Source of the DNA: an uncultured virus (IMG/VR IMGVR_UViG_3300025922_000001)
Taxonomy: Duplodnaviria > Heunggongvirae > Uroviricota > Caudoviricetes
Virus record (IMG/VR): IMGVR_UViG_3300025922_000001
Strand: one strand, 5' to 3'
Length of the DNA stretch: 32,433 nt
Under the pieces are notes generated by a model. It was given only the letters and a program-made list of their open reading frames with translations, was not told the origin of the DNA and did not search any database. The position numbers were made by a program, and so were the translations under genes. Positions 1,704-20,034 of the stretch are shown one piece after another (the first letter of the stretch is position 1; every line of letters begins with the position of its first letter).

Positions 1704-1711
1704 GAGGTCCA

Positions 1712-2404: not shown

Positions 2405-2412
2405 GGGGAGTT

Positions 2413-3360
2413 ATGGTCAAATCACAGTGGTTGCCCGGGTGGGCGAAGAATCCGCTCGGTGGTGATGTACGCGGCAAGCTTTACCAATTTGTGGAAAATC
2501 CCAAGTGCTGCCTGCACACGACCGAGGGTACGTCCATCGCAGGTGCGGTTAATGCATACGCACCTTATCCGCCTCACGGCATTTATGACTGGCGGACGAG
2601 GGAAGCTAAGCAGCACATCCCACTGGACCTTGCATCGTACTCCGCGATGGACGGCAATGACGACGACTTCATGGTCCAGATTGAGCTGGTTGGTTTCGCG
2701 CACGACACACGCAACTGGCCCGACATCGCGTACCGCAACATCGCAGCCGACGTCATTGGGCCGATTGCCGATGCATTCGGTGTGCCGCCTGAGAGCATCG
2801 AGAAGCAGTGGCTTGATGACACTGATGGTGTCACGATCGCATCACCGAACTCGCCGCTTCGCATCACGCCTGCGCAGCTTCGTGACTTCTCTGGTTGGCT
2901 TGGGCATCAGCACCTGCCCGCGCCTGACTCGCACTGGGACCCCGGTGCACTCGACATCGCACGACTCATTCGGTACGGATACAACAATGAGGAGAACGAC
3001 ATGACCCCTGATGAAGCGGCTCTACTCGCCAACGTTGCGCACAACGTCGAGCGCATCAACGCGTTCCTGTCCATCACGGCTGACGCGCCGGTGAACCCGG
3101 CTGACGGCGAGCGCGAGACCCTGTTCGACGCCACGTGGCAGGCTGCCGCTGAGGCCAAGGCGCGTGATGCCGCCGAGCTCAAGGCGATGACGGACAGTTT
3201 CGCCGCAATGCAAAGTGTTCTCTCCGCCATTTCGGGCAAGCTCGACAAGATGGGTTCCGGCATTGGCGGAAATGTCACGAAGGCCGACGTGCAGGAAATG
3301 CTTGACAAGTCGCTGGCTCGACTCGACATGATCCTCAAGCCGTCGGCTCAGCCGCTGTAG
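2413..3360 (+). CDS. Endolysin, Zn-dependent N-acetylmuramoyl-L-alanine amidase-like, with C-terminal helical region
   Basis: LHTTEG, PH, VQIELVG, WLGHQHLP..SHWDPG match amidase_2-type Zn-ligand motifs of actinophage lysins. SD GGGGAG. Confidence 0.8.
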   Translation: MVKSQWLPGWAKNPLGGDVRGKLYQFVENPKCCLHTTEGTSIAGAVNAYAPYPPHGIYDWRTREAKQHIPLDLASYSAMDGNDDDFMVQIELVGFAHDTRNWPDIAYRNIAADVIGPIADAFGVPPESIEKQWLDDTDGVTIASPNSPLRITPAQLRDFSGWLGHQHLPAPDSHWDPGALDIARLIRYGYNNEENDMTPDEAALLANVAHNVERINAFLSITADAPVNPADGERETLFDATWQAAAEAKARDAAELKAMTDSFAAMQSVLSAISGKLDKMGSGIGGNVTKADVQEMLDKSLARLDMILKPSAQPL

Positions 3361-3442: not shown

Positions 3443-4804
3443 ATGACCGCCGGTGGAATGACGCGCAGCGAAGTCGCTGGCGCTTCTGCACGCGCTTTGA
3501 TGAGTTATCTCGAGCGCCCGCCGGGTTGGAACCCCCGCCCTCACCAGATTCCACCAGCTGGAAACTGGTATGGCTGGCTTTTGAACGCGGGTCGTGGTTC
3601 TGGAAAAACCCGCACGTGTGCGCAATACGTGATCGATCATGTGAAGGGCCCGCCGTGTCTACCCGGCAGCACACCTCACTGGATTGGTATCATTGGTCCG
3701 ACGCTTGGAGACGCTGTCCAGGCGTGTTTTGCGGGGCCGGCGGGGATTGGACCGAACGACCCGACCTCTCGTATTGCGGGAGGTCTAGGCGGCACTGTCA
3801 TCAAGTGGAGTAACGGCTCGCAAGCGAAGCTATTCGGGGCTTCCACGCCTGATGATATCGAACGTCTACGCGCAGGCGGTAACACATGCCTAGTATGGGC
3901 TGAAGAACTCGCGGCTTGGCGTCATCTCGACAAATGCTATGAGCAGATGCGGTTTGGTCTTCGTACCGGTAAGACACCTCGCTGGATCGCGAGTACGACG
4001 CCTAAGCCAAAGTTGCTCATCAAGAAGCTTGTTAAGAACACGCCGCACAACGTCATTGTCACGCACGCAACGACTCACGATAATCCCTACCTTGAGCAGC
4101 ACGTTCGAGACGAACTTTTTGCGGACTATGAAGGCACGCAAATTGGTCGACAGGAACTGTACGCCGAGGTCATGGATCAGGATGAAAACGCGTTGTGGCG
4201 ACGCGATGACATCGATCACTTCCGTGTTAAGGAAGCTCCTGAGCTTGTACGCGTCACGGTCGGTGTTGACCCATCGGGTGGTGCTGGTGAACAAGGTATC
4301 GTCGTCGCGGGTAAGTTCATCATCGATGAGATCGTCAAGGAGCGTAAGCAAAAGCGCTTTGAAGGTTTCGTTCTTTCCGATATGACGTGTCGTCTCGGCC
4401 CTGCCGGATGGGGTCGTCGGGCAGTCCAGGCGGCGATTGACTGGGAAGCCGACGACATCGTTGTCGAGACGAACTACGGCGGTGAAATGGCCGTTGTCAC
4501 AATCCGAGACGCGGCGCTTTCAATGGGTATCACCATTCCCGTGAAAATGGTCGTGGCAACACGTGGTAAGCGTGTTCGTGCCGAGCCTGTTGCAGCACTT
4601 TCCACTCGTGGTCAGTGGCATCACGTTGGTACTTTCCCAGAGCTTGAGGATCAGTTGTGCACCTGGACTCCTGAGCTCGATTACTCACCCGACCGACTTG
4701 ACGCTATGGTGTGGACTGCTTGGCATAACAAGATCGTAGCCACGCGTCCTCGCGGTATGGGTTCATTCGCAGGTGGAGGTTCCATGTCCCGCTCGATCGG
4801 ATAG
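3443..4804 (+). CDS. terL: Terminase large subunit
   Basis: PHQ motif, Walker A AGRGSGKTR, Walker B VWAEE, STTPKP, DNPYL, GRQEL, nuclease VGVDP, VETNYGG, PDRLDAMVW. Confidence 0.95.
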   Translation: MTAGGMTRSEVAGASARALMSYLERPPGWNPRPHQIPPAGNWYGWLLNAGRGSGKTRTCAQYVIDHVKGPPCLPGSTPHWIGIIGPTLGDAVQACFAGPAGIGPNDPTSRIAGGLGGTVIKWSNGSQAKLFGASTPDDIERLRAGGNTCLVWAEELAAWRHLDKCYEQMRFGLRTGKTPRWIASTTPKPKLLIKKLVKNTPHNVIVTHATTHDNPYLEQHVRDELFADYEGTQIGRQELYAEVMDQDENALWRRDDIDHFRVKEAPELVRVTVGVDPSGGAGEQGIVVAGKFIIDEIVKERKQKRFEGFVLSDMTCRLGPAGWGRRAVQAAIDWEADDIVVETNYGGEMAVVTIRDAALSMGITIPVKMVVATRGKRVRAEPVAALSTRGQWHHVGTFPELEDQLCTWTPELDYSPDRLDAMVWTAWHNKIVATRPRGMGSFAGGGSMSRSIG

Positions 4805-5449: not shown

Positions 5450-7351
5450 ATGGTATGGTGGGATCGCCGTAAGAAGAGCAAGCATGCGGCAGTTGACACC
5501 CGTCTCGTTGTGCCATCGCGTGATGAACGTGTTTTGACCGCCGCTGCTCAGACGGTCAACACAATCGCACGGGGTCGCACGCGCATAACGCCAAAGTATG
5601 ATGGTTGGCAGCGTGAGCTGTGGGATTACTACGACACGCTCGGTGAATTCAACATCTCCGTGACGTGGCGTTCATACATGATCTCGCGCGTGCGGCTTCG
5701 TGCTGCAAGGTTGAAGCCCGGTTCAGATGAGCCTGAGATTGTCGATGTAGGTCCAGCGGCTGACTTTGTGAATGAACTTTGTCGTGGCACCGCCGGACAG
5801 ACCGAAATGCTCGGTTCGCTCTCTGTGTACCTTGATGTGCCCGCTGAGGGCTGGCTTGTTGGTGAGACAACGGGTAACCGGCAGAAGTGGCGTGTCATCT
5901 CGAGTGACGAAATTCGACGTCGTGGACGCGAGTATGAAGTCATCTCTGATGAATCAACGGAATCCGATGTCATTTGGCGTACGCTTCCCGTTGCCACTTC
6001 ATACGTGACACGCATTTGGCGTCCACACAAGCGTCTTCATTATCTACCGTACTCGTCCGCGTACTCCGCGCGTAGCGCGATGCGTGAACTTGAGTTGGTC
6101 AACCGACACATTCAGGCACAGTACCTATCACGTCTTGCGTCAGCCGGTCTCATCATTTTCCCCGATGAGATTACTTTTCCTGTGCGTCCTGAATTTATGA
6201 ATGAGCCTGACCCGTTCATTCGTGAATGGATTGAGACTGCTGCTGAAGCCATCAAGAATCCTGGCTCAGCATCATCGCTGATCCCGCTTCCAATTCGCGT
6301 GCCTGCTGAGTACGTGGAGAAGGTAAAGCACATTGACTTCACGCTTAAGATGGATGATAACATCATCGCAAAGCGTGACTCGGCTCGGAATCGTTTGGCT
6401 TCACAAATTAACGTCCCAGCCGACCTGCTCTTCCAGGCAGGTGACGTCAATCACTGGGGATTGTGGCAGCTTGAAGAAGGTGCCATTCGTACCTACATCA
6501 CGCCCGATGTTGAGATCATTACTCATGGTCTCACCACCGGATACTTGCATCCGCGTATGCGTGCTGCTGGCATCGAAGATTACGATGACTGGGTTGTTTG
6601 GTATGACGCATCTGAATTGATGGTGCGGCCAGACAAGTCGGACAATGCCAAGGATGTGTACGACCGCTTCGAGTTGTCGGGTACTGCTCTTCGTCGTGAA
6701 ACTGGCTTTGACGAGGATGATGCGCCTGACGACACTGAGCTCGCTAACATGATCCTTAAGAAGCTGGCAACAAACCCGACTCTTGCCATTCAGGCATTGC
6801 AGGAACTCACTGGCATCAAGCTTGAAGAGCCAGCGAATCAGGCAGCTGTTTCTACCGAAGGTCCAGTGGTGACTGGCTCTGAGTCTGATGGCGATAGTGG
6901 TGCATCAAACGATGGGCCACCGAACACTGGAAACGATGAACCACCTGCGCCTGCCGCATTGGCTGCTGAGCTTGAGCGTATTGCAATTGAAAGCGTGTTG
7001 CCTAAGCCCGCTGGTTCATTGATTCCAAGTCCTGTGCCATTCGAATCACTCTCGTCTGAAAACCGTGCGTTTGCAATCATGCAGGCTGGCATGCGTCACG
7101 TGATGGAATTCACGATTGACAGCTGGCGGCTTAAGCATCCACTTATTTGCATGGAGAAGCAATTCTCCTGCCCGTTCACGCATGCCAGTTATGAAGGTGT
7201 GCGATTCCGCCCTGGGACAAAGGGTGATTACGAGTGCTTCCTCACTGACCGCGGCGAGTTGTCCATCGGGCAGCGACTCATCAATCACGACGATACACGA
7301 CTTGTCGCGAATCCGAGGAAGGTAATCAATGGTACACGTCTCGGGTCCTAG
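5450..7351 (+). CDS. Portal protein with C-terminal extension
   Basis: WQRELWDYYDTLGE, SRVRL, RIWRPH, SRLASAGL, NHWGLWQLEE, VWYDASEL.VRPD, ALRRETGF resemble cluster-B-like actinophage portals; follows terL. Confidence 0.85.
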   Translation: MVWWDRRKKSKHAAVDTRLVVPSRDERVLTAAAQTVNTIARGRTRITPKYDGWQRELWDYYDTLGEFNISVTWRSYMISRVRLRAARLKPGSDEPEIVDVGPAADFVNELCRGTAGQTEMLGSLSVYLDVPAEGWLVGETTGNRQKWRVISSDEIRRRGREYEVISDESTESDVIWRTLPVATSYVTRIWRPHKRLHYLPYSSAYSARSAMRELELVNRHIQAQYLSRLASAGLIIFPDEITFPVRPEFMNEPDPFIREWIETAAEAIKNPGSASSLIPLPIRVPAEYVEKVKHIDFTLKMDDNIIAKRDSARNRLASQINVPADLLFQAGDVNHWGLWQLEEGAIRTYITPDVEIITHGLTTGYLHPRMRAAGIEDYDDWVVWYDASELMVRPDKSDNAKDVYDRFELSGTALRRETGFDEDDAPDDTELANMILKKLATNPTLAIQALQELTGIKLEEPANQAAVSTEGPVVTGSESDGDSGASNDGPPNTGNDEPPAPAALAAELERIAIESVLPKPAGSLIPSPVPFESLSSENRAFAIMQAGMRHVMEFTIDSWRLKHPLICMEKQFSCPFTHASYEGVRFRPGTKGDYECFLTDRGELSIGQRLINHDDTRLVANPRKVINGTRLGS

Positions 7352-10300
7352 TCTTGATCAGCTTGATGATCGTGGTGATCGATTCGCTGCTGATATTAGG
7401 CGCACGATTGCTAGGATCGTCAATATCACTATGCCTAAGGTGGGAGACATCAATGATCTCGCGATCATTCGAACCCACTGGACTTCTGCTGTCAACGACG
7501 CGCTGATTGAACACCTCCGTAACGCGTGGGTTGACTCGGCTGACGACACCTACGGGAAGTTGACTCAAGCAGTTGCTCGAGTGACTCAGGCCCAACCACA
7601 GCAGTCTCAGCCAGTTGCGCTCACTGCTGCGTTTCTTGTGCCGAAGGTTGTTAGTCGTCTTGCTGAGTTGTTTCTTGAGAATGCGATTAACCGACTTGTC
7701 TCTATCGGTGATCTCGTGTGGAACGTCGCACGCCAGCAGATGCTGATTGGTATGCAAGCCGGTGAAAGCATTACTATGATTCGTCACCGTCTCATGAAGA
7801 CAACTGAACTTGCTTCACCACGTGCTGAGGTCATTGCACGCACCGAGGTGATTGGTGCGAGCAATGCCGGTTCATACGCTGAAATGAAGGCTACCGGACT
7901 TAATGCGACGAAGGAATGGATTGCGACGACCGACAGTCGCACGCGTCCTTCGCACGAACACATCGATGGTGAAGAAGTTGGCATCGACGATAAGTTCATC
8001 GTTGGTGGGTATGCTATGTCGTATCCTCACGACCCCACTGGACCGCCGCAAGAAACCATCTCTTGTCGCTGCACGCTAGGTTGGGACATTCCCGATGAGG
8101 AGTTCTTGATGATTGACGGTGAACCACTAGCGGCGGCAGCGACTGCGTTTCACTTGCGTGGTAGGCACGATCAGAAGGATCATGGTCGTAAGGGTCTTCG
8201 TGGTCTTAATGCTGGCAAGTCTCTTAAGATTACACATGGTCTTGTGCATAAGAAGCAGGCTGACGGCTCGATTATCGCTGTCACAAAGGACGGCAAGAAG
8301 CACATCCTGTGGGAAGGCAACAAGTATCACCTTCGTGAGAAAGATGACAATGGTCTGTGGCAGACCAAGAAGACGGTCATCAAGTCAAAGGCATACAAGG
8401 AAATCAGTGATTTTGCTTCTGACTGGCACGAGCCAGATCAGGAAAAGCCTGGTGACAAGAAGACAGATGATGGTGACAAGAAGGTCACCACTGATAAGAA
8501 GACTACACCTATTCCAGCAGCCGCACCGACACCAGTCGCTACTGACACAGCATCTGGCGCACCGCTTAAGATCACGCACGGGCTTATTCACAAGAAGCAC
8601 GCTGATGGCACGACGATTGCTGTCAATAAGAATGGTGATAAGAAGGTCACCTGGAATGGCAAGTCATACGATCTCGATAAGAAGCAGGCCGATGGGTCAT
8701 GGAAGACCGAGAAGACGGCCATTAAGTCGAAAGCCTACAAGGAAGTTAACGACTTTGACTCGGCGTGGCATGAGCCGGTAGCCAAGGGTGATGACACCGA
8801 ACTTCCTTCTACACGGAAGACACCTGCACCAGCAGTGAAGTCCGTTAAGTCTGCAGCAACGACTTTGCCGAACGATGTCAAATATATCAAGCCAGGCAAG
8901 CAAATCAATCTTGATCAGCAGTATCTTGATACACATGAGTTTCCTGACGATTCGGTCATTGCCATTTCTACGTTCGGCACCAAAAAGATTACTGCACATG
9001 GTGATAAGATTTCTTTTCACCACATGGACGCGAAAAATAAGTGGGTAAAGAATAACGAAACATCAATGAGTGATGCACAGGCTGCGATCGATAAAGCGGA
9101 TGCTTATTGGCATGAGCCTGTCGCTGTGTCTGTTGGTACGCCGAAGAGTGATAAGAAGTCACCAGTTCCAGCGGTTACGCCTAAGACGACGCCCATTCCG
9201 ATGGAAAAGGAGTTGATTGAGGCAGATAAGCCTCTTAAGATCATAGATGCATTGTCTGGTGATGTGCCAGAGTATTCGACAATTGCTGTGACAAAGGACG
9301 GCAACTATCGAGTCGTTTCACTCAATGGTAAGTACTTTGAAGTTCAGAAGAACAAGAAGGTCGGTGGTTGGGGACCTCTAACATCGTTTGAAAAGGGAGA
9401 TGAGTACAGCGACATTGTGTCGCTCAACAAGGAGTGGTACACACCTAAGCTAGCAACACAAAAGACCAAGACTGTTCCGAGCACATCGCCAATGACTGCT
9501 GGCGAGCCGATCGACATTACACAAGATATGTTTAAGGACGTTAACTTCCCGCCTAAAACAGTGTTGGCAGTTAACGAAGATGGTACGAAGCGTATCATGA
9601 GATCTTGGAATGACACGATTGCAGTCCAAGAGTGGAATGCAGAATTTGGAGTTTGGACCGGATCACAGTGGCTTACTGATGGCAAAGAAGCCGAAGAAGT
9701 CTCAAAGCTTAACATTAAGTGGCATGCGCCTGTCGAGACAGGATCAAAGGCAACTGCACCAAGTGCACCAGGCGCGCCAAATGTAAGTACACCAAAATCA
9801 ACGCCTACGGCACCATCTAAGACGATTGATAAGTACGCGCCTGTGGAACCAGGCAGACCCATTACGCTAGCGCAAGAATTCTTTTTTCAAAATTACCCGG
9901 CAAATAGCACAATCGCAGTTACACCTGATGGCAAGACAAAAATTGCCTGGGGTAATAATGGTAAGTATGAAATTCTTGAACTTGATGAAAAAAGTGGCAC
10001 TTGGTTCGTTACCGAGAATGCCAATCAGTATGGTGCACTCGCAATGGCGCAAAACTTTTCTATTGAGTGGCATGAGCCAGAAAACGCTAGTCCGTCTAGC
10101 ATAAACACACCGGGTAATTCATCTACTTCAACTAAGTCGGCTAATAAACTAAAGCATGTGTATATGGGCAACAAGGCGTTGCTCGACCAGCCGGTCACTC
10201 TTACACAGGCAACGTTTGAAGATTCATATCCGTCTGGTTCTGTAATTGCGATGAATGCTTTTGGCACGTATCAGCTTACACGTGAAGGAGGAAAGTTCAA

Positions 10301-11375
10301 GATACGTGCTAATGATGGTAAAGGTAACTGGATCGTCGTCCAGGAGAGTGATAAAGACGGCGCGTTTAAGATGGCAGATAGCTTTGCCGCAGACTGGTGG
10401 TCAGTGAAAACTGATGTCAACTCAGTCACGGAAAATTATCCTGTGTCTGCTCCATCTGCTCCATCTGCTCCAAGTGGACCAAAGACGTTTACACCTTTTC
10501 AGAAGGCGTATGTCCAGTCGATTTTCGGCAGTAACGGTGTGAAATGGCACACTGACACGAAGAAGATTTACGATGCTGCACTTGAAGTGTCGAAGAAGGA
10601 TTCTTCGTTGTCGATGGCCGATGCACTCGACATCATGGATCAGTCACTTCTAAAGAAGACTGATAATCCATTTGCCACAAAGATGAACAAGTTCCTGAGC
10701 ACCAAGGCAGGAATGAAGTACGCGCAGGAGAAGGGTGGCTCTGCGCCGGTTGGCTCAGTCACACCAAGCGTAGCTGCTGCATCAAAGTCTTCAGTCAATA
10801 TCCCAAAGTCAAATTTGCCGGCAAAAAATCTTACGAAGGCATCGGCGACTAATATGCAGCAAAGGATGGATCTACTTAGCCCACCCCCCTGGACTGCCAC
10901 ACAGCGGGCTGCACTTAAGAACTACACCGGTGGCTCGTACACTGAAATCAATAAGTGTGCGCGCGGAACTGGTGCATGCTCACCGGCCACAATCGCTAAG
11001 ATCAAGCAGATTAAAGCAGCGATGAAGCCGAGCACTGAGAACATCAAGCTCTATCGCAAGACCAATTTGGCTACGTTTGGCGTTACTTCAAACGAGCAAC
11101 TTGAAGCTCTCGCTGGTAAGACAATTCGTGATGATGGTGTCATTAGCACGAGCATTGTCGAGGGTACGTGGTCAGGACAAGTTCATCTCAAGATTGAAGC
11201 GCCAGCAGGATCCAAGATGGCGTGGGTCCAGCCGATCAGTCACTACCCGAATGAGAATGAATTCGTTCTCGCGCCGGGCACTGAGTTTGAAGTGATCAGT
11301 GTAGAACCCCACTGGTCTGAGCCAAATCAGCGAGTCATGAAGGTTCGCATCGTACCAGGGAGTGGCACGCCGTGA
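7329..11375 (+). CDS. MuF (SPP1 gp7-like) minor head protein fused to seven repeats and a C-terminal ADP-ribosyltransferase
   Basis: RAEVIARTE, KEWIATTDSRTRPSH..IDG, F.VGG..MSYPHDP, ETISCRC (MuF). C-terminal ALKNYTG.SY..IN, LYR, ISTS, NENEFVL..GTEFEV (VIP2/Alt-like ART). Confidence 0.9.
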   Translation: MVHVSGPSLDQLDDRGDRFAADIRRTIARIVNITMPKVGDINDLAIIRTHWTSAVNDALIEHLRNAWVDSADDTYGKLTQAVARVTQAQPQQSQPVALTAAFLVPKVVSRLAELFLENAINRLVSIGDLVWNVARQQMLIGMQAGESITMIRHRLMKTTELASPRAEVIARTEVIGASNAGSYAEMKATGLNATKEWIATTDSRTRPSHEHIDGEEVGIDDKFIVGGYAMSYPHDPTGPPQETISCRCTLGWDIPDEEFLMIDGEPLAAAATAFHLRGRHDQKDHGRKGLRGLNAGKSLKITHGLVHKKQADGSIIAVTKDGKKHILWEGNKYHLREKDDNGLWQTKKTVIKSKAYKEISDFASDWHEPDQEKPGDKKTDDGDKKVTTDKKTTPIPAAAPTPVATDTASGAPLKITHGLIHKKHADGTTIAVNKNGDKKVTWNGKSYDLDKKQADGSWKTEKTAIKSKAYKEVNDFDSAWHEPVAKGDDTELPSTRKTPAPAVKSVKSAATTLPNDVKYIKPGKQINLDQQYLDTHEFPDDSVIAISTFGTKKITAHGDKISFHHMDAKNKWVKNNETSMSDAQAAIDKADAYWHEPVAVSVGTPKSDKKSPVPAVTPKTTPIPMEKELIEADKPLKIIDALSGDVPEYSTIAVTKDGNYRVVSLNGKYFEVQKNKKVGGWGPLTSFEKGDEYSDIVSLNKEWYTPKLATQKTKTVPSTSPMTAGEPIDITQDMFKDVNFPPKTVLAVNEDGTKRIMRSWNDTIAVQEWNAEFGVWTGSQWLTDGKEAEEVSKLNIKWHAPVETGSKATAPSAPGAPNVSTPKSTPTAPSKTIDKYAPVEPGRPITLAQEFFFQNYPANSTIAVTPDGKTKIAWGNNGKYEILELDEKSGTWFVTENANQYGALAMAQNFSIEWHEPENASPSSINTPGNSSTSTKSANKLKHVYMGNKALLDQPVTLTQATFEDSYPSGSVIAMNAFGTYQLTREGGKFKIRANDGKGNWIVVQESDKDGAFKMADSFAADWWSVKTDVNSVTENYPVSAPSAPSAPSGPKTFTPFQKAYVQSIFGSNGVKWHTDTKKIYDAALEVSKKDSSLSMADALDIMDQSLLKKTDNPFATKMNKFLSTKAGMKYAQEKGGSAPVGSVTPSVAAASKSSVNIPKSNLPAKNLTKASATNMQQRMDLLSPPPWTATQRAALKNYTGGSYTEINKCARGTGACSPATIAKIKQIKAAMKPSTENIKLYRKTNLATFGVTSNEQLEALAGKTIRDDGVISTSIVEGTWSGQVHLKIEAPAGSKMAWVQPISHYPNENEFVLAPGTEFEVISVEPHWSEPNQRVMKVRIVPGSGTP
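8214..10406 (+). repeat. Seven divergent ~75-aa protein repeats within the MuF-ART gene
   Basis: Units G.P[LI].[IL]...[ST][TIV]IA[VM]..[DF]G...W...W[HY][ETA]P, separated by P/T/S/K/A-rich linkers. Units 1 and 2 are the most similar (LKITHGL.HKK.ADG, IKSKAYKE..DF...WHEP). Confidence 0.85.
10446..10472 (+). repeat. 9-bp tandem repeat x3 (TCTGCTCCA; Ser-Ala-Pro)
   Basis: Three perfect copies in the linker after the seventh repeat. Confidence 0.9.
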
Positions 11376-12259
11376 CGACACCTGAAAAGCCGCCAACTTC
11401 ACTTGAAGACCCTGATGCGCAATCGTTCTATGTTGTTGAGAATGATGATCAGGGCTTCACCGACGAGCAAATTGCAAAGTGGCTCAATGGTGAACCACTT
11501 GATGCTGTCACGGCGGCCGCAAACGAAGATAAATTCACGGGTGGAATGATTGCGCTCATTCCTACTGATGCTGACATCACTCGTCTTGCACTGGACGGTG
11601 AAGAGCCACCTGAGGATTTGCATCTCACGCTATGGTATTTGGGCGATGAGGAAATCAACATCGCGCAGCGGCTGCGTATTCTTCACGGTGTTGTGCATGC
11701 CACAGAGGGTATGCCTGTCATTCGTGGAAATGCATTTGGTGCAGCACATTGGAATCCAGAGGGTAAGTCACCCGCATGGGTTCTTAATGTGGGAGACGCA
11801 GAAGATAATTACGTGTGGAATCTTGCACACGCTCGTGGATTGATCGTTTCAAACATCGTAGGCTTTGATATGCCTGAACAGCACACCCCATGGCAACCTC
11901 ATATTTGCATCGCCTACTCAAGCGCTGATTTGCTTGATGAAATCAGCGAGCGTGTTGGTCCGGTGACGTTTGACCGAGTGCGAATCGCGTTTGGCCACGA
12001 GATCACTGACATCAGGCTGCATGATGATTTGGTGGTCACTGCAGCAGGTGGTAAGTCCGGTGATAAGAACAACCTTAAGGATTACTGGACGAAGGACCCA
12101 AGAGGACTTGCTAAGTGGGTTGACCACCCGCATCCATGGACGGCGCTTTATGGCCACCTCAAGAAGTACATGCCTGACGAGATGGCTAAGCGTGTCACGT
12201 CAGAATGGTATCACGAAGTAAAGGGGCACTGGCCGAATGAAGGCAAGAAAGGTAAATGA
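11372..12259 (+). CDS. 2H phosphoesterase (2'-5' RNA ligase/LigT-like) domain protein in the head module
   Basis: MIALIP, DLHLTLWYLG (HxT no. 1), QHTPWQPHICIAY (second motif, HxC), FDRVRIAFG. Acidic N-terminus and an extra C-terminal W/H-rich domain; GTGA overlap with MuF-ART. Confidence 0.8.
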   Translation: MTTPEKPPTSLEDPDAQSFYVVENDDQGFTDEQIAKWLNGEPLDAVTAAANEDKFTGGMIALIPTDADITRLALDGEEPPEDLHLTLWYLGDEEINIAQRLRILHGVVHATEGMPVIRGNAFGAAHWNPEGKSPAWVLNVGDAEDNYVWNLAHARGLIVSNIVGFDMPEQHTPWQPHICIAYSSADLLDEISERVGPVTFDRVRIAFGHEITDIRLHDDLVVTAAGGKSGDKNNLKDYWTKDPRGLAKWVDHPHPWTALYGHLKKYMPDEMAKRVTSEWYHEVKGHWPNEGKKGK

Positions 12260-12309
12260 GTAATTAAAGATCTCGCTGTAACGTGGAATCCAGAATGGTA
12301 ACCACTCGT

Positions 12310-12319
12310 TGATATACTA
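12310..12319 (+). promoter_or_regulatory. Putative extended -10 promoter upstream of the maturation protease
   Basis: TGA-TATACT-A, then SD AGGAGGT and GTG at 12344. Confidence 0.5.
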
Positions 12320-12343
12320 ACATCATCATCAGGAGGTGGACCC

Positions 12344-14170
12344 GTGCCGTGGCACATTGTTGAGAACAGCACTGAGTGCGAGAATGGCGAGCCATTCGCA
12401 GTCGTGCAGGACGACACCGATGAAGTAATGGGGTGCCACGACACCGAGGCGTCCGCGCAGGAGCACATTGCCGAAATGGCTGCCGCAGAAGGCATGCCAG
12501 AATCGTCCGGTGGATACAGTGCGCAGCAGATGGCTTTCGCCAACTCGAGCATCATTCCTGATGGTCATGTCCGTGTTGGTGATGGTTCACTGATGACGCA
12601 AGCTGAATTTGAGGCTGCACGACGGTGGCGTGGTACGCTTGTGGTGGAAGGCGTCACCACGGGAGATGGCCGTGAGTTCTCGCCTGAAGCACTCCAGTGG
12701 GTTGACACACCGCTCATTCGGTGGCAGAAGGAAACTGCACATGGCGGACAGCATGATGTCACTGTCACGGTGGGTCGCGCTGACAATGTGTGGCGCGACG
12801 GTGCAAACATCGAGGGTGAGGGCATCCTTGATATCGTAAGTCCAGATGGCTTCGAGATCTATCGCCGTATGAAGGAAGGCTTTGCTGGCGGCATCTCCAT
12901 CGACGCTGATGACATCGGTGACGCTGATGTCGAAATGGTGTGGCCTTCTGATGTAGAAGATGCCGGCAACTCACTCAAGATGCTCTTGCAGGGCAAGCCG
13001 GAAAAGATGATTTTTCATGGCGGTCGTGTTCGCGCGGCTACCATCGTTGACATTCCTGCATTCGTCGAGGCGAAGATTTCACTTATCGGAAATGACACCG
13101 TGGCGCTTGCTGCCGCTGCTGGCATGCCGGTCACTGGCATGCCGATGAAGAAGCCGACGTACGCACTCGTTCAGCACACCACGGCGTTGTCTGATGCCCC
13201 CTGGACCTCGCCTCGTCAGACTGGCATGAAGCGTACCGCACCGCTTGGTGCGTATGCTTGGGGCCGCGGTGACATCGCGTTGCTGCTGCATCACGAGTTG
13301 TTCGATGATGGCACCGTAGGCGCAGCCAACATCACCGCTTGTTCATCCGCTATTGCGGAGCTGGCCAACTCGCGGGGTCTGATTCCAGAGACCGATGAAC
13401 GCATCGTCTACGAGCATCTGGCTGGCCATCTCCGTGAAGCTGGCTTGACGCCTCCACCGTTCCCGCGTCTTGACGCACTTTCGGCATCGGCTGCGTCACT
13501 TGATGATAGGCGACCGCCGAAGGAATGGTTCGAGAACCCGGGACTTAAGGTTCCTGTCGGAATCACCATCACTGACGAAGGTCGCATCTACGGCCACGCC
13601 GCGCAATGGGATTCGTGCCACATCGGTTTTGATGACATGTGCGTGCAGCCTCCCGTTGAGAACTCGCACCCATACTTCATGACCGGTGAAGTGATCACCA
13701 GCGATGGCACTCGTGTTCCGGTTGGCCAGATCACTGTTGCGACCGGACATGCGCCGTTGACTATGCGTGCGTCAAAGGCTGCTGAACACTACGACCACAC
13801 GGGTAGCGCGATTGCTGATGTCGCGGTCGGTAATGATGACATCGGCATTTGGGTCGCAGGCGCGATTCGTCCTCATGCTGAAATGGCACGTGTGCATGAT
13901 CTTCGTGCATCGGGTCGTGTAAGTGGTGACTGGCGTCGCATCGGCGGTGAACTCCGCATGGTCGGCTTGCTTGGCGTGAATGTGCCAGGCTTCGCACTTC
14001 AGACTCGTGCGCGTGTTGCGTCGGGAGTTCCACAGTCACTCGTTGCTGCCGGACTCACGACCATCGGAAATGTTGCTGTGTCTGTCCCGGACGATGAAGA
14101 CCAGGACTCTGCGGCAATGAAGCGTGTCCTTGTAATGCTTAAGACTCGAGTGCATGGTGGGGGTGAATGA
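12344..14170 (+). CDS. Capsid maturation protease (multidomain)
   Basis: WRGTLVVEGVTTGDGR, GISID.D, AT.VDIPAF, PPKEWFENP, GRIYGH.A.W..CHIG, HYD, GIWVAG, SGDWR, VNVPGF resemble cluster-B-like maturation proteases; lies just upstream of the major capsid gene. Confidence 0.8.
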   Translation: MPWHIVENSTECENGEPFAVVQDDTDEVMGCHDTEASAQEHIAEMAAAEGMPESSGGYSAQQMAFANSSIIPDGHVRVGDGSLMTQAEFEAARRWRGTLVVEGVTTGDGREFSPEALQWVDTPLIRWQKETAHGGQHDVTVTVGRADNVWRDGANIEGEGILDIVSPDGFEIYRRMKEGFAGGISIDADDIGDADVEMVWPSDVEDAGNSLKMLLQGKPEKMIFHGGRVRAATIVDIPAFVEAKISLIGNDTVALAAAAGMPVTGMPMKKPTYALVQHTTALSDAPWTSPRQTGMKRTAPLGAYAWGRGDIALLLHHELFDDGTVGAANITACSSAIAELANSRGLIPETDERIVYEHLAGHLREAGLTPPPFPRLDALSASAASLDDRRPPKEWFENPGLKVPVGITITDEGRIYGHAAQWDSCHIGFDDMCVQPPVENSHPYFMTGEVITSDGTRVPVGQITVATGHAPLTMRASKAAEHYDHTGSAIADVAVGNDDIGIWVAGAIRPHAEMARVHDLRASGRVSGDWRRIGGELRMVGLLGVNVPGFALQTRARVASGVPQSLVAAGLTTIGNVAVSVPDDEDQDSAAMKRVLVMLKTRVHGGGE

Positions 14171-14171
14171 T

Positions 14172-14270
14172 ATGTGTAATTGCCGCAAGAACAAGAAGAT
14201 CATTGTTCAGCCGACTGAAGAGCAGGTCCCTGCACCCGCTCCGCAGCCTGTTCCTCAGCCCACGGTCTAG
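14172..14270 (+). CDS. 32-aa CxC micropeptide (MCNCRKNKKIIVQPTEEQVPAPAPQPVPQPTV), not in the ORF track
   Basis: ATG one base after the protease stop, preceded by GGGGGTGA; ends TAG at 14268-14270. Confidence 0.6.
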   Translation: MCNCRKNKKIIVQPTEEQVPAPAPQPVPQPTV

Positions 14271-14347
14271 AACTTTCAGATCATTCTTCGCGATGGGGAC
14301 GCCTATTGTTCCCATCGCGAAGAAAATGTTGCACGACGGTACTACTT

Positions 14348-14357
14348 TGATACGCTA
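14348..14357 (+). promoter_or_regulatory. Putative promoter for the major capsid gene
   Basis: TGA-TACGCT-A with TTGCAC (14329-14334) 16 nt upstream of the hexamer; strong SD GAGGAGG before ATG 14406. Confidence 0.5.
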
Positions 14358-14405
14358 CGGAGAGAAAGCGCGCGGACGTCCGCTCGCCCTCAAGAGGAGG
14401 CTTGA

Positions 14406-16175
14406 ATGTCAGGGAAGCCTGAGGAGCTTGTGAACGTTCCGCAGGATCTCACGCTCATCACCGATGACTCGGAGCTCTCGGCTCTTCAGGTCCAGGTGGT
14501 GGCTGAGTTCGATCGCGTTCAGGGGCTCGACAGCGTCACTCCGGAATCGCTTCAGTACGCGATGAAGCTCACCGATGGTCTCGATCGCATTCGTGCCGAG
14601 CTCGCCGTTCGTGAATCTCGCGCGGAGACGCTGGCCAACATCGAGAAGACCAAGATGCTCGCCACGGCCGACACGCTTGCGGCTCGTGTGCATGGCAACA
14701 AGGGTCCTGACGGCAAGCCTCTTGAGGCACAGCAGCCGATGGACGCTGACAGCATCGCTGCGGCGGCGTCTCGCGGTACCACGCAGGCTCTCATCCAGGT
14801 GATGGGTGAGCGCATCGGTGGACGAGGCAACCTCGTTGCCGCTGGTCGCGGTGGTGCACTCGGTGACGCGCAGAAGTTCGCGCCGGCCGGCTCGACTCCG
14901 CCCAAGGCGAAGCTCGCGATCACCGCAAGCGTCGACATTCCGGGTGTGGCACGCGGTGACAGTGTGAGCAACCTCGACGGCCTCGTCGATGTCTTCACGC
15001 GCAAGGCGAAGAGCATGCCGGTCACGTCCGGTAATGCGAATCAGCAGCTCGTCGCGACGGTGCGAAACGAATTCGAGCACACCGTCGATGACCGCACCAA
15101 CCCGGGTCAGATCGAAGAGCTCTTCCGTCATCTCACCTCGGATGACAAGAAGGATGCGCTCGTCGCTGCTGGCGGTTGGTGCGCGCCGTCTGAGGTTCGC
15201 TACGACTTCTTCAACGTCGCCTGTGAGGCTGGTCTCATCGACTTGCCCACGTTCGGTGTTTCTCGCGGTGGCATCCGATTCCCGACTTCGCCGTCGCTGG
15301 CTGACGTGTTCGGTGGCGCATTCGGTGGCTTCTCCACCGGCTTCAGCGTCACGTCGAACCCGTGGCTCTGGACCGAGGATTCGGACATCGCGGCTGTCAC
15401 CGGTTCGCCGGAGAAGCCCTGCATCCGGGTCCCCTGCCCGTCGTTCAACGAGGCTCGCCTCGAGTGCTACGGTGTCTGTCTCACGGCTGGCAACCTGACC
15501 GACGATGCATACCCGGAAGCGACGTCCAACTTCCTGCGCCTGCTCATGTCGGCCCACGCGCACGCCATGAATGGCCGTTACCTTCAGCTCATGTCGGCTG
15601 CCTCGACGGCTGCGGTGTCGACTGGCTCGTATGCGGTCACTGGTCAGCCGGTTTACCAGCAGGTCTACGGTGGCATCGCACTTGCCGCGACCGACTACCG
15701 TGCGCGCTACGGCATGTGTGAAGAGGACATCCTTGAGGTCATCGTACCCTACTGGGTGCGGGCTGAAATTCGGGCCGACCTCGCGTGGCGCACTGGTGTC
15801 ATGCCGGAGCAGGTCTCGAACGCTGAGATCGACGCGCACTTCAACGTCATCGGCGTTCGGGTCCAGTGGGTCAACGACTTCCAGGTACGCGGTGCCGGGC
15901 AGTTCGGAAACGCCACTGCGATGACCGCATGGCCCACGTCAGCAACGATCATGGTGTACGCGGCCGGGACGTTCCTGCTTGGCAACGGTCTTTCCCTGGA
16001 CCTGGGTGTTGTCCGTGACTCCGTGCTCAACGAGACGAACGACCACACCGCTGCCTGGTCGGAGGAGTGCCACCTGATCGCGAAGGTTGGTCACGAATCC
16101 CGCCGCTACACGATCACCTTCGCTGTCAACGGCCGTACCGGCTCGGCCAACGGCACGGGCGCGACCAACCTGTAG
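14406..16175 (+). CDS. Major capsid (hexamer) protein with N-terminal scaffold-like region
   Basis: Helical N-terminus, ALVAAGGWCAPSEVRYDF, LPTFGVSRGGIRF, KPC.RVPCP.F.E.RL, GNL...AYPE, LDLGVVRDSVLNETND. Strongly C/G-ending codons suggest high expression. Confidence 0.9.
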   Translation: MSGKPEELVNVPQDLTLITDDSELSALQVQVVAEFDRVQGLDSVTPESLQYAMKLTDGLDRIRAELAVRESRAETLANIEKTKMLATADTLAARVHGNKGPDGKPLEAQQPMDADSIAAAASRGTTQALIQVMGERIGGRGNLVAAGRGGALGDAQKFAPAGSTPPKAKLAITASVDIPGVARGDSVSNLDGLVDVFTRKAKSMPVTSGNANQQLVATVRNEFEHTVDDRTNPGQIEELFRHLTSDDKKDALVAAGGWCAPSEVRYDFFNVACEAGLIDLPTFGVSRGGIRFPTSPSLADVFGGAFGGFSTGFSVTSNPWLWTEDSDIAAVTGSPEKPCIRVPCPSFNEARLECYGVCLTAGNLTDDAYPEATSNFLRLLMSAHAHAMNGRYLQLMSAASTAAVSTGSYAVTGQPVYQQVYGGIALAATDYRARYGMCEEDILEVIVPYWVRAEIRADLAWRTGVMPEQVSNAEIDAHFNVIGVRVQWVNDFQVRGAGQFGNATAMTAWPTSATIMVYAAGTFLLGNGLSLDLGVVRDSVLNETNDHTAAWSEECHLIAKVGHESRRYTITFAVNGRTGSANGTGATNL

Positions 16176-16227: not shown

Positions 16228-17121
16228 GTGGCTGGACCTCGCCTGGATGTTGAGCCACCTGTGTTCACCCCACAACCGTATGGCCTAATGAGTGTTGTTC
16301 AGCTTGTGTCGGATAGCACTCCACACTGGCAGAACGGCATCACCTGGGAATCGCGCTGCATGGATCCCATGGGTGCGTCGACATATGACGAGTGCATCGC
16401 TGTCACGGGCATTGAGGGGTCTCCGCCTGAGCCGAGTGCGAAGACTGAAAATGTCCAGTTGATCGACCGTGGTGCAACACCGTTCACGCCATACGTCAAG
16501 TTTGAGTGCTCGCCCGTAGGCGTCTCTGATGCGCAGAAGATTGCTACCGATGCGCTGGCCAGGAGCGAGACTTGGCAGGTTGAGCGAGCGTTCTGGACCG
16601 GTCTAGTGGACGGTAAAACCATCGCGTTCCCGCATCTTGCAGCGAACGCTGAAGTTGATGATGCACAAGGCATCATGCTTCAGTCAGCTGCCACAATCGT
16701 CACAGGTTCACCGGTTGACATCGCCACCGGCTTGGGTTTGCTTGAACAGCAACTCGCCAACTGCTATAACGGTGTTGGCATCATTCACGTGACCGTCGCT
16801 GCACTACCGACCCTTGACGCATGGGGTCTTGTGAAGGCAACGAACGGTATTCTTAAGACGCAAAACGGAAACCTCGTCGCTGTGGGAGCTGGGTACACCG
16901 GCTCTTCGCCTGCAGGCGTGACAGCACCCACGGGGCAGTCGTGGATGTACGCCACTGGCGCCATCATGATGCGACGTGGTGAAGTAAAGATCAACCCCCT
17001 CCGTGACTCGATTGACCGGGCAAACAACACGGTTGAGATGATTGCCGAGCGCACGTACGTACTTGGCTGGGATTGCTGTCACGCAGCGGTCCTGGTCGAT
17101 ATCGGCGTTTCCATTACCTAG
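16228..17121 (+). CDS. Second capsid protein (capsid pentamer-type)
   Basis: P...PYGL.SV, HWQNGITW, PFTPY..FECS, E...VERAFW, GLGLLE, G.IH, T.NGNLV.VGAGY, WMYATG, N...MIAERTYV; directly follows the MCP. Confidence 0.7.
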   Translation: MAGPRLDVEPPVFTPQPYGLMSVVQLVSDSTPHWQNGITWESRCMDPMGASTYDECIAVTGIEGSPPEPSAKTENVQLIDRGATPFTPYVKFECSPVGVSDAQKIATDALARSETWQVERAFWTGLVDGKTIAFPHLAANAEVDDAQGIMLQSAATIVTGSPVDIATGLGLLEQQLANCYNGVGIIHVTVAALPTLDAWGLVKATNGILKTQNGNLVAVGAGYTGSSPAGVTAPTGQSWMYATGAIMMRRGEVKINPLRDSIDRANNTVEMIAERTYVLGWDCCHAAVLVDIGVSIT

Positions 17122-18408: not shown

Positions 18409-20034
18409 GTGGTAACTGTCGTTGAAGAACTACACGGTAGCGGTTACACTGACATCATCCTCACCACTGACGGTGTCACCACGCAAATCGGACAATGGCT
18501 TGTCGCAGTTCAAGGCTGTGATTTTTATAACGCATCCGACTTGGTGTCACCTAGTCCGGGTACGTGGACATTGCTTGCGGGTGATGGCAATCTCTCATCT
18601 GGACATCCACACGTTAAGATTTGGACGCGGCAAGTTACCGTCGCAGGTGCTAATGCTGTCACGTTCGACCAAGCACTTGACTCGGGCAATCATGCGCATC
18701 TTCGTGTCCTATCCGGAGTGGATAGCTTTGATGTTGGCGCTGGTTCATTCGGCCCGTCATCAGTGTCGCATGTGTGTCCATCGCTTGTCACAACAGCAAA
18801 TGGTGATTACCTACTTAACGCCAGCATTGGTCTCACTAGTGGCGGTGCGGCGTTTGACTACACGGCGCCGTCGAACATGGTGGAGACTGATGTTTCCACA
18901 TTTTCCACCATGGGTTCTCATAATGAGATTCTTGGTGCTGCTGGAGCAACGGGCACACGCACGCATACTGCATCATCTGCTTGTGAATACGCATCAGCAA
19001 GTGTTGCCTTCAAAGCATCTACTGGCGCGACTGTTGATTTTGAAGGAACAAGTAACGCTGCTGCCAATGCCGGTGGTGCTGTTGCGATTGAGAGGGCATT
19101 CACTGGTACTGCGAACTCTGCTGCCAATGCTAGCGGTGACATTACGGTAAGTAGAGCACTCGCTGGTGCTGCGAACTCTGCTGGCCAGGCGTCTGGAACA
19201 TTGACGCTTCAAGGAGAGGGAGGGACCGTGACTGCCCCGCTTACGACCGAATACGGTCCCTGCGAGCCGTGGCCTGTTCGCTGGACCTGCGATGTCTCAA
19301 CGGTGTCGCCAATCATTACTGGGCAAGCTGTCCAGTTTGCGACTGAAGTCATTTGGGCGCTATCAGGACGACAGTTCGGTCTGTGCACTGTTACGCTTCG
19401 ACCATGTCGACGTGAATGTTTTGATGGTGCGTGGAGTGCATCATATAGTCAGTTCGCAGGGAGTGGTGGCTTCGTTTCACCTGCACTTATTGGTGGACGT
19501 TGGTTTAACATCATATGCGGTGGTTGCGGTGATGGGTGTTCATGCAGTCGTGTGTCTGAGGTTGTGCTGCCAGCACCTGTAAACAACATCGTTGAGGTTA
19601 AGATTGATGGAGCGCCTCTCGCAACGGGTGCATATCGACTTGACAACGCACGCCTACTTGTGCGCACTGATGGTGGAGAATGGCCCATCTGTAACAACCT
19701 CTCGTTGAATGACACTGAGGAGGGAACGTGGTCAATTACCGCAGAGTTTGGTACCCACGTACCCGAAGGTGGCGCATGGGCAGTTGGCGAACTAGCGTGC
19801 GAGCTCATTTCTGCGATTGGTGGAAATGATTGCCGGTTGCCTCGTAACATCACGCAGCTTGCTCGTCAAGGTGTGACGATCAGTTTCCCAAGTGTGGTAG
19901 AGCTGTTTAAGGAACGAGCCACTGGACTCTACCTCGTCGATCTCTTCATTGCGACATGGAATCCCAATCGTCTCACAAATCGCTCTGGTGTATATAGCGT
20001 TGACGGAGCGATCGCACGACGGGCGGGTACATAA
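18409..20034 (+). CDS. Head-to-tail adaptor fused to an N-terminal beta-rich accessory domain
   Basis: C-terminal half CEPWPV..C, ATEVIWALSGRQFGLCTVTLRPC, EVKIDG, YRLDN..LLVRTDG..WP.C, GELACE, CRLP...Q..RQGV, TGL..VD.FI...NP (adaptor). N-terminal half is Thr/Ser/Gly-rich. Confidence 0.75.
   Translation: MVTVVEELHGSGYTDIILTTDGVTTQIGQWLVAVQGCDFYNASDLVSPSPGTWTLLAGDGNLSSGHPHVKIWTRQVTVAGANAVTFDQALDSGNHAHLRVLSGVDSFDVGAGSFGPSSVSHVCPSLVTTANGDYLLNASIGLTSGGAAFDYTAPSNMVETDVSTFSTMGSHNEILGAAGATGTRTHTASSACEYASASVAFKASTGATVDFEGTSNAAANAGGAVAIERAFTGTANSAANASGDITVSRALAGAANSAGQASGTLTLQGEGGTVTAPLTTEYGPCEPWPVRWTCDVSTVSPIITGQAVQFATEVIWALSGRQFGLCTVTLRPCRRECFDGAWSASYSQFAGSGGFVSPALIGGRWFNIICGGCGDGCSCSRVSEVVLPAPVNNIVEVKIDGAPLATGAYRLDNARLLVRTDGGEWPICNNLSLNDTEEGTWSITAEFGTHVPEGGAWAVGELACELISAIGGNDCRLPRNITQLARQGVTISFPSVVELFKERATGLYLVDLFIATWNPNRLTNRSGVYSVDGAIARRAGT

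Follow-up and report, generated by a model that had tools for sequence, protein, structure and literature searches.

A short alanine-centred motif shared by five head proteins of an uncultured, actinophage-related virus is a candidate recognition site for its own head-maturation protease

Introduction

That several head proteins of one virus are processed at a single protease motif is already well known. In phage T4 the protease gp21 cuts at L/I-X-E, a short motif common to many head proteins, and according to PMC9026906 the capsid propeptide is removed, core proteins are cut several times, the protease is processed at its own C-terminus, and Alt, an ADP-ribosyltransferase that is packaged in the head and ejected, is processed at both ends. 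The giant myoviruses phiKZ (gp175), 201phi2-1 and SPN3US (gp245) have prohead proteases that likewise process many head and ejection proteins at one motif, with redundant sites in propeptides; these enzymes cut after Glu, at sites shown by mass spectrometry. Here we examine a 32,433-nucleotide stretch of DNA from an uncultured virus of the Caudoviricetes (IMG/VR record IMGVR_UViG_3300025922_000001; the whole stretch is called the window below), in which the motif [LVI]-[TVAS]-A-[AS] recurs at domain borders of five head proteins and is probably the recognition site of a head-maturation serine protease encoded between them.

Two other systems are close to what is found at this locus. Herpesvirus assemblins (pUL26/VP24) are proteases that form the N-terminal part of a longer protein, from which cuts release them. 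For pseudorabies virus PMC4498786 gives the release site (R-site) as YLQA-T and the maturation site (M-site) as VQA-S, that is, hydrophobic-x-Ala followed by a small residue, and reports that the M-site cut removes 37 C-terminal residues, which bind the capsid protein, and releases the scaffold from it. The second system comprises the MuF polymorphic toxins (Jamet et al. 2017, PMC5576092), in which the MuF domain is N-terminal and the toxin domain C-terminal; 14% of 191 such toxins are ADP-ribosyltransferases, and the authors hypothesise that MuF toxins are packaged in the head and delivered with the DNA. The word stem 'cleav' has no occurrence in that paper, whereas the MuF protein of the window has a candidate cleavage site behind its MuF domain and differs further in having about 880 residues of repeats between that domain and its passenger.

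Results

A motif enriched in head proteins

The window carries on its + strand a structural module of siphovirus type (Table 1), to which the five proteins in question belong: the portal protein, a fusion of a MuF domain, internal repeats and an ADP-ribosyltransferase domain (ART; the fusion is called MuF-ART), a 2H phosphoesterase protein, a protein that we call the protease protein, and the major capsid protein (MCP). An initial annotation had listed 12 instances of [LVI]-[TVAS]-A-[AS] in these proteins and proposed that the motif, shared by domain borders, is a protease cut site. All 12 are present, none more than 3 nt from where it had been placed, and a thirteenth lies at aa1148 of MuF-ART (10770). 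These 13 instances compare with 3.76 expected from composition, and none of 5000 per-protein shuffles reached 13 (Poisson 1.5e-4), whereas the other 22 open reading frames (ORFs) of the window hold 6 against 8.16 expected. The anticipated excess of head proteins over other ORFs thus survives correction for composition, and the motif is not equally frequent in Ala-rich tail proteins, the tape measure of the window having 2 instances against 1.74 expected.

Further sequences came from a search of viral contigs with the window MCP, which yielded 70 loci at 46-100% identity to that protein, many of them with 10 kb flanks that span the head module. Their ORFs were called and matched to the window proteins by BLAST, and proteins more than 95% identical were dropped for the enrichment counts; the nearest record (G001) is a fragment 100% identical to the window and adds no independent information. 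A megablast search with the head module found no match in the phage collection. The 171 head-protein relatives retained for counting hold 493 instances of the motif against 179 expected (2.76x), and 310 non-head proteins of the same relatives hold 157 against 163 (0.96x), with 84 against 71.5 in the relatives of the tape measure. When the same four residue classes were arranged in all 24 orderings, the order given by the initial annotation was the most enriched in the head-protein relatives and the three next in rank were one longer motif in shifted registers; in reverse order it reached 1.29x, and non-head proteins ranged over 0.85-1.32x across orderings.

Most sites are kept at the same places

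Conservation of the individual sites was judged in up to 55 relatives at 46-91% identity, a row counting as positive if the broad motif [LVIM][TVAS]A[ASG] stands at the corresponding alignment position; near-identical copies of the window make up two of the protease-protein rows and one of the MCP rows. Overall, seven sites are kept in most relatives, three in a third to a half, and two are not kept, and several lie within linkers that are otherwise variable. The portal site at aa29, within a hypervariable N-terminus, has the broad motif in 26 of 33 relatives (24 in the strict form) and emerged from a motif-blind scan as the top conserved island of the whole portal alignment, with a core identity of 0.93 and a flank identity of 0.31. 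The same scan placed aa566 at the top of the protease-protein alignment (core 0.95, flank 0.50); this site, 39 residues from the C-terminus, has the broad motif in 42 of 44 rows. The other two sites of the protease protein lie in variable, gapped linkers, where the broad motif is found in 41 of 44 rows at aa379 and in 33 of 44 at aa255, at the latter mostly as VVAGG (9 in the strict form). Both MCP sites at aa172 and aa252 score 53 of 55 rows, the second followed by an invariant G256, G257 and W258, and the 2H site at aa222 scores 18 of 28.

A pooled logo of six conserved sites reads [AS]-[LVI]-[TV]-A-[ASG]. Its central Ala is fixed by the way in which the instances were gathered; A174 and A254 of the MCP and A381 of the protease protein are invariant alignment columns in their own right. 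Homologues keep most of the sites at the same borders, where the initial annotation had suggested looking, but do not keep MCP aa143 or MuF-ART aa1148.

The window MCP matches 877 phage records by tblastn, nearly all of them actinophages (496 Mycobacterium, 198 Gordonia, 131 Microbacterium, plus others). The gene order of the window is that of the cluster B mycobacteriophages Casbah and Phipps and of Gordonia phage Fireball, and the cultured relatives share with it homologous proteins and the motif at the same places; unlike them the window phage is uncultured, and its MCP is about 30-35% identical to theirs. The same sites are found in phages of four host genera, Mycobacterium (cluster B), Gordonia (Fireball), Microbacterium (Pepe25) and Streptomyces (Geonosis). 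The portal site, for example, has an equivalent at aa24 in Casbah and Phipps (LTAAS), at aa7 in Geonosis and at aa13 in Pepe25, and the motif reaches 12 instances against 1.3 expected in the Fireball protease, 16 against 2.6 in that of Pepe25 and 16 against 4.1 in the MuF-protease protein of Geonosis.

A capsid protein site borders the HK97 fold

An AlphaFold2 model of the MCP (mean pLDDT 69) consists of a delta/scaffold-like region at aa1-254 and then the HK97 fold; in the model, long helices (21-39 and 46-96) are followed by disorder at 107-170, a small unit at 170-254 and further disorder at 254-270. A phmmer search of the MCP against PDB sequences gave no match. The model superimposes on HK97 prohead I (8fqk_A) with Z 13.6 over model residues 188-572, one of 531 chains at Z of at least 8, and on the HK97 mature head (1ohg) with Z 12.6, model residue 265 being aligned to HK97 residue 121. 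The maturation site of HK97 is Ser104, and this alignment places its counterpart near MCP residue 248, some 7 residues from the predicted A254↓A255 bond (the arrow marks a predicted cut here and below). Many MCP homologues in the database, including those of cluster B phages, align with the window protein only from query aa 249-256 on (tblastn).

The border site at aa252 is present in Casbah, Phipps, Fireball, Pepe25 and Geonosis, reading L[TI]AAGGWCAPSE in the first two, and the site at aa172 recurs in Geonosis (EITASVDVPG) and Pepe25 (SIVAAANIPG). The instance at aa117 is ambiguous: a motif lies within 8 columns of it in 47 of 55 rows, and it falls inside a predicted helix (115-129) of the low-confidence region 107-170.

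The protease protein contains two protease-like domains

The protease protein was modelled with AlphaFold2 from a 41-row alignment (mean pLDDT 80.3). The model has four folded units, D0 (aa1-50), D1 (~75/83-250), D2 (272-365) and D3 (386-547), and a C-terminal helix (584-603); segments with pLDDT below 50 cover 52-58, 251-270, 376-385, 548-551, 553-582 and 606-608, or 79 of 608 residues. Each of the three main stretches below this value (251-270, 376-385 and 548-582) holds one of the three motif sites.

D1 superimposes on T4 gp21 (5jbl_B) with Z 10.2 over 127 aligned residues (rmsd 3.7) and on the varicella-zoster virus protease (1vzv) with Z 8.6, and more than 30 herpesvirus protease entries score Z 5.5-8.3 (VIA-align), among them those of human cytomegalovirus, Kaposi's sarcoma-associated herpesvirus, Epstein-Barr virus, herpes simplex virus and pseudorabies virus; sequence identity to the herpesvirus proteases is 7-13%. 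Foldseek with the whole 608-residue model returned weak E-values only, of at least 0.03, and the alignment profile gave a single, spurious low-complexity match among PDB sequences. Ten of 41 family members match Pfam Peptidase_S77 weakly (best E 8.8e-4), with the match on D1 in 7/7 inspected. The candidate catalytic residues of D1 in the alignment are S185, which is invariant, and H133 and H225, which are nearly so.

D3 is a second candidate. Like D1 it is beta-rich, with strands and helices in the same order in the model, and PHROG 18402, labelled head maturation protease, spans aa393-578. tblastn detects D3 in 5/5 cultured relatives, with H426 and H469 kept in 6/6 sequences and S527 in 5/6; an aa566-type site follows D3 in 5/5 cultured relatives, and in Casbah and Phipps motif sites stand both before and after it. 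In a wide structural search of the PDB, where D2 and D3 were queried as parts of the whole-protein model, neither had a match. We dropped the idea that D1 and D3 are paralogues recognisable from sequence, for which hhalign gave probabilities of 0.15% (local) and 0.04% (global). In the 12344-14170 product the firm match to a protease fold is that of aa83-250 to gp21/assemblin; the universally conserved domain at aa393-578 is a candidate protease only.

The first 50 residues of the protein (12344-12493) form a small beta-plus-helix module, PWH..C..PWAVV..GCH, whose Cys/His pattern hints at metal binding; the module recurs right after a cut-site motif in fused proteins of relatives, for instance at aa275-327 in L071.

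The motif lies at the joins of exchangeable modules

MuF-ART has the layout of a MuF polymorphic toxin, with Phage_Mu_F (PF04233) at aa136-250 (E 3.7e-18) and the toxin domain at the C-terminal end. Relatives that carry the site at aa267 include L014, a 1422-aa MuF-ART protein, and L071, in which MuF is fused directly to protease modules and TLVAAGG stands at aa267, the end of the MuF domain. The basic, His-rich module F-HLRGRH-x-Q-x-x-HG behind this site is in other relatives the N-terminus of stand-alone 2H/cargo proteins (at aa7 in L051, L052 and L070, at aa11 in L027 and at aa13 in L043), and it may serve in targeting or in DNA binding. The translation and the k-mer scan also reveal, between MuF and ART, about eight tandem repeats of about 105 residues each that end in W-[HYW]-x-P (window ~8200-10570, aa ~290-1080); no cut-site motif stands between the repeat units.

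The 2H protein consists of a 2H domain at about aa50-221 and a C-terminal module at aa225-295. Its first 2H motif, H84-L-T-L, is canonical, and in the second, H177-I-C-I, Cys replaces Thr/Ser. The assignment is weaker for the window protein itself, because it falls below the Pfam cut-off (E 0.014), and it is supported by the relatives, 21 of 25 of which match PF13563 2_5_RNA_ligase2 (best E 2.7e-6) and 13 of 25 LigT_PEase, and by a PDB profile match to the 2'-5' RNA ligase 1iuh (E 0.0032) in which both His motifs are aligned. Faint matches to Acb1 in 2 of 25 relatives (E 0.07) are a lead only. The C-terminal module (12044-12256) matches phrog_6439 (E 6e-13), an uncharacterised stand-alone family of 82 residues. 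A read-through joining the 2H and protease ORFs, which share a frame, was considered and dropped, as they are separated by two stop codons.

In fused proteins of relatives (836-1189 aa) the 2H domain stands in front of the protease-protein modules, and the motif is found at both 2H borders, exactly between the 2H domain and the next module, and between further small modules. These joins are the behaviour that would be expected of a portable, cleavable linker. Between the 2H and protease modules, at residues ~200-490 of L029, L033, L026 and others, lie another four to six short modules, each about 50-110 residues long and bounded by the motif, as in EALTAAAI, AEVTASIQ and MILAASAD; one of these has a weak HerA_C match.

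In Fireball the MuF-ART, protease, 2H 'RNA ligase' and MCP proteins each have a gene of their own. Its 2H gene product, gp18 (L074 6616-7209), begins M-T-A-A-G, and the gene boundary therefore falls on what is a cut-site motif in the fused relatives.

Discussion

With a probability that we put at roughly 70%, the phage's own head-maturation serine protease, encoded by the 12344-14170 gene, recognises this motif as its cut site. Cleavage at the motif is supported by four lines of evidence, namely conservation of the sites, the predicted disordered linkers in which they lie, the position of the MCP site relative to the HK97 fold, and the presence in the same module of a protease with the gp21/assemblin fold. 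By analogy with the herpesvirus assemblin sites, the bond cut would follow the invariant Ala, with Ala at P1 and a small residue at P1'. The core proposal of the initial annotation, that the motif shared by domain borders is a protease cut site, gains support, but two of the 13 instances are unconserved and MCP aa117 is ambiguous. The further suggestion, by which the repeat-ART fragment and the 2H enzyme would be packaged, released in the capsid and ejected, is plausible and consistent with the module borders and with the precedents of T4 Alt and the MuF toxins.

According to this view, a procapsid would be assembled from MCP with its own helical delta region, a portal carrying MuF and its passenger, and the protease protein, possibly tethered via its C-terminal helix. 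Inside the assembled procapsid the protease would then cut after the invariant Ala of the motif. The portal would lose about 31 N-terminal residues, and the 254-residue delta/scaffold-like region of the MCP would be cut off and fragmented, at least at A174↓S175 and A254↓A255, so that the mature MCP would begin at [AG]GGWCAPSE. The protease protein would cut itself into modules, with removal of the last 39 residues and the C-terminal helix that they contain, the MuF carrier would be separated from the repeat-ART passenger at A269↓A270, and the 2H phosphoesterase would be trimmed at both borders. The repeat-ART fragment and the 2H enzyme might stay in the head and leave with the DNA, and the linker motif would make modules portable between carrier proteins.

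This scheme resembles the T4 system in its single short motif, in the gp21 fold of D1, and, on the predictions above, in the loss of a capsid propeptide, the multiple cutting of other head components, the processing of the protease at its own C-terminus and the carriage of an ADP-ribosyltransferase in the head. It differs in that an invariant Ala takes the place of the Glu of the T4 motif (PMC9026906), in that the virus is of siphovirus type and related to actinophages, and in that the predicted cargo consists of passenger domains on MuF or the protease protein and would not enter by a short N-terminal targeting peptide; moreover, the T4 cuts are known, whereas those in the window are predicted from sequence and models. 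The motif resembles the herpesvirus assemblin sites in its pattern. Assemblin shares the protease fold with D1, and its place at the N-terminal side of a longer protein, from which it is released, has a predicted parallel in the window; the pseudorabies M-site is 37 residues from the C-terminus and the last site of the protease protein 39. The Ser-His-His triad of D1 is, however, a candidate only and the identity is as low as stated above, the window protein has the extra modules D0, D2 and D3, and its capsid protein carries a delta region of its own.

Several observations weigh against our interpretation. The motif is degenerate and was defined post hoc, about 4 of the 13 window instances being expected by chance, and it does not stand out in an unbiased exact k-mer scan of the window alone, which is dominated by the internal repeats of MuF-ART (LVAA occurs 3 times against 0.19 expected). 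The case rests on the independent sequences, and there the sites differ in their support. The motif is found in only 2 of 55 rows at MCP aa143 and in 13 of 28 relatives at 2H aa46, where most of the others start at that point or carry the HLRGRH module instead; at MuF aa98 and aa267 it is found in 5 and 4 of 10 aligned relatives, respectively, a small sample. No ART-bearing relative has a motif before its ART domain, and aa1148 was dropped as an ART-release site on that account. Conversely, M-V-A-G at MCP aa359-362 (15480-15491; within MVAGS), inside the HK97 fold, has the broad motif in 55 of 55 rows and is almost certainly structural, a warning that a conserved instance need not be a cut site. 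The stretch from MCP residue 175 to 254 is conserved and forms a small folded unit in the model, and that it is released as a fragment is an assumption. As to the enzyme, tblastn detected D1 in only 3/5 cultured relatives, and the protease fold of D3 is indicated by Atlas leads only (S78 prohead protease, TM 0.53; S77/S80/DUF2213 clusters, 0.91-0.93).

The literature searched describes no neo-N-terminus or fragment for any relative, which also counts against cleavage. Full-text searches of literature outside subscription journals gave no account of this motif, nor of how cluster B-type phages process their capsids, and a full-text search for the MCP border peptide returned unrelated primer strings only. 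Neither 'cleav' nor 'protease' occurs in the main text of Podgorski 2020 (PMC7150772), and its supplement reports Rosebush virion mass spectrometry as protein-level coverage only. Rosebush gp13 is represented there by 17 spectra and 11.4% coverage in band 3 and by 2 spectra and 1.47% in band 1, values that could fit a fragment but decide nothing.

An alternative that we think unlikely, though it deserves to be taken seriously, is that the motif is an uncut docking or linker element, such as a short strand through which proteins are recruited to the procapsid by binding to the protease, scaffold or portal. Conservation, position in linkers and enrichment in head proteins would fit a targeting peptide equally well, and the T4 capsid-targeting sequences are short N-terminal peptides (PMC9026906). 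Those T4 peptides are themselves removed at protease sites, however, and a docking element would have no need to occupy every module border or both ends of the 2H domain, nor to sit just where HK97-type capsid proteins lose their delta domain; the likeness to assemblin cleavage sites and the gp21/assemblin-fold domain likewise favour cleavage. We see very little room for the view that the motif has no specific function and results from flexible, Ala-rich linkers together with its post hoc definition. A degenerate pattern for which chance alone would give about 3.8 instances in the five proteins, two unconserved members and the unremarkable exact k-mers of the window would all agree with it, but the Ala-rich tape measure shows no excess in the window or in the relatives, residue order matters (2.76x against 1.29x when reversed), the motif is kept while its flanks vary, as the portal island illustrates, and the sites persist across four host genera at about 30% protein identity. 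The enrichment in relatives, the island scan and the residue-order test thus largely refute it.

Equally improbable in our estimation is cutting of the sites by a host protease, for instance one that resembles signal peptidase or is otherwise specific for Ala. Some bacterial peptidases typically cut where small residues flank the scissile bond, and in this respect the motif would suit such an enzyme. The substrates are cytoplasmic head proteins, however, the motif is confined to a head module that itself encodes a gp21/assemblin-fold domain, and conservation across phages of Mycobacterium, Gordonia, Microbacterium and Streptomyces fits a specificity that the phage brings with it. On balance, recognition by the phage's own head-maturation protease remains the reading that we prefer.

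What would be new here is the specificity, with Ala at the conserved position as in the assemblins, the lineage, which is large and has many cultured members, the occurrence of two protease-like domains in one protein, and the mix-and-match architecture of the cargo. If the interpretation is correct, it predicts where the mature portal, capsid, protease and cargo proteins begin and end, and it would supply a processing map for a group of hundreds of cultured phages (cluster B mycobacteriophages and phages of Gordonia, Microbacterium and Streptomyces) for which none has been described. It would also link phage and herpesvirus capsid proteases by substrate preference in addition to fold, explain the swapping of enzyme cargo (ADP-ribosyltransferase, 2H phosphoesterase) between carrier proteins, and provide a simple annotation rule for finding packaged and probably injected proteins.

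A more far-reaching and considerably more tentative possibility joins these points. Hydrophobic-x-Ala↓small might be an ancient code of the assemblin fold, common to herpesviruses and this actinophage lineage, and the block from portal to capsid protein a mix-and-match polyprotein in which any enzyme modules flanked by the motif (ADP-ribosyltransferase, 2H phosphoesterase, other small modules) enter the procapsid on MuF or the protease protein, are freed there, and are injected as first-strike enzymes of host takeover or anti-defence. Possible tasks of the 2H enzyme in such a scheme are the breakdown of immune signals made of cyclic nucleotides or the repair of damaged tRNA, and D1 and D3 may divide the work between them.

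Features of the window

The coordinates of the genes, domains and motif instances discussed above are collected in Table 1.

Table 1. Genes, domains and motif instances in the window (positions in nucleotides; residue numbers refer to the respective protein; ↓, predicted cut)
Feature	Position	Strand	Evidence or remark
Large terminase	3443-4804	+	
Portal protein, 633 aa	5450..7351	+	phrog_776 portal, E 1.5e-111
Portal site L29-T-A-A32	5534..5545	+	predicted cut A31↓A32
MuF-repeats-ADP-ribosyltransferase fusion (MuF-ART), 1348 aa	7329..11375	+	Pfam
MuF site L98-T-A-A101	7620..7631	+	N-terminal to MuF domain
MuF site L267-A-A-A270	8127..8138	+	C-terminal border of MuF domain; predicted cut A269↓A270
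Module F-HLRGRH-x-Q-x-x-HG, basic, His-rich	8151..8192	+	begins 5 residues after predicted MuF cut
MuF-ART instance V1148-A-A-A	10770..10781	+	probably chance
ADP-ribosyltransferase domain, aa1180-1335	10866..11333	+	Pfam ADPrib_exo_Tox PF03496, E 9.3e-21; phrog_3895
2H phosphoesterase protein, 295 aa	11372..12259	+	
2H site V46-T-A-A49	11507..11518	+	N-terminal border of 2H domain
2H site V222-T-A-A225	12035..12046	+	C-terminal border of 2H domain
Protease protein, 608 aa	12344..14170	+	AlphaFold2 model, PHROG
D1, gp21/assemblin-fold domain, aa83-250	12590..13093	+	VIA-align
Protease-protein site L255-A-A-A258	13106..13117	+	D1/D2 linker, disordered 251-270
Protease-protein site L379-S-A-S382	13478..13489	+	D2/D3 linker, disordered 376-385
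D3, second beta-rich domain, candidate protease	13499..13984	+	conserved residues, Atlas leads, PHROG
Protease-protein site L566-V-A-A569	14039..14050	+	disordered 553-582, then helix 584-603
Small ORF between protease-protein and MCP genes		+	
Major capsid protein (MCP), 589 aa	14406..16175	+	phrog_777, E 5.7e-125
MCP instance I117-A-A-A120	14754..14765	+	ambiguous
MCP instance L143-V-A-A146	14832..14843	+	probably chance or lineage-specific
MCP site I172-T-A-S175, consensus LAVTA↓SVDIPG	14919..14930	+	end of disordered 107-170
MCP site L252-V-A-A255, consensus ALVA↓[AG]GGWCAPSE	15159..15170	+	start of disordered 254-270; predicted mature N-terminus
Tail genes, including tape measure (904 residues)	downstream of MCP		

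Beyond these features, the region 5' of the terminase gene (489-3360) holds a UDP-glucose/GDP-mannose dehydrogenase-like gene and a GH25 muramidase-like gene, together with a weak amidase_2 match. The gene that follows the MCP gene (16228-17121) matches phrog_779, and its product is homologous to Casbah gp14, which is annotated as 'major capsid pentamer protein' (E 2e-7), to Fireball gp21 (E 9e-26) and to the product of Geonosis gene 14 (E 9e-19); in its relatives the motif is depleted, with 17 instances observed against 28 expected. Further downstream, a protein of 541 residues (18409-20034) has a head-tail adaptor match (phrog_783) over aa284-534 only, preceded by an unexplained N-terminal extension of about 280 residues.

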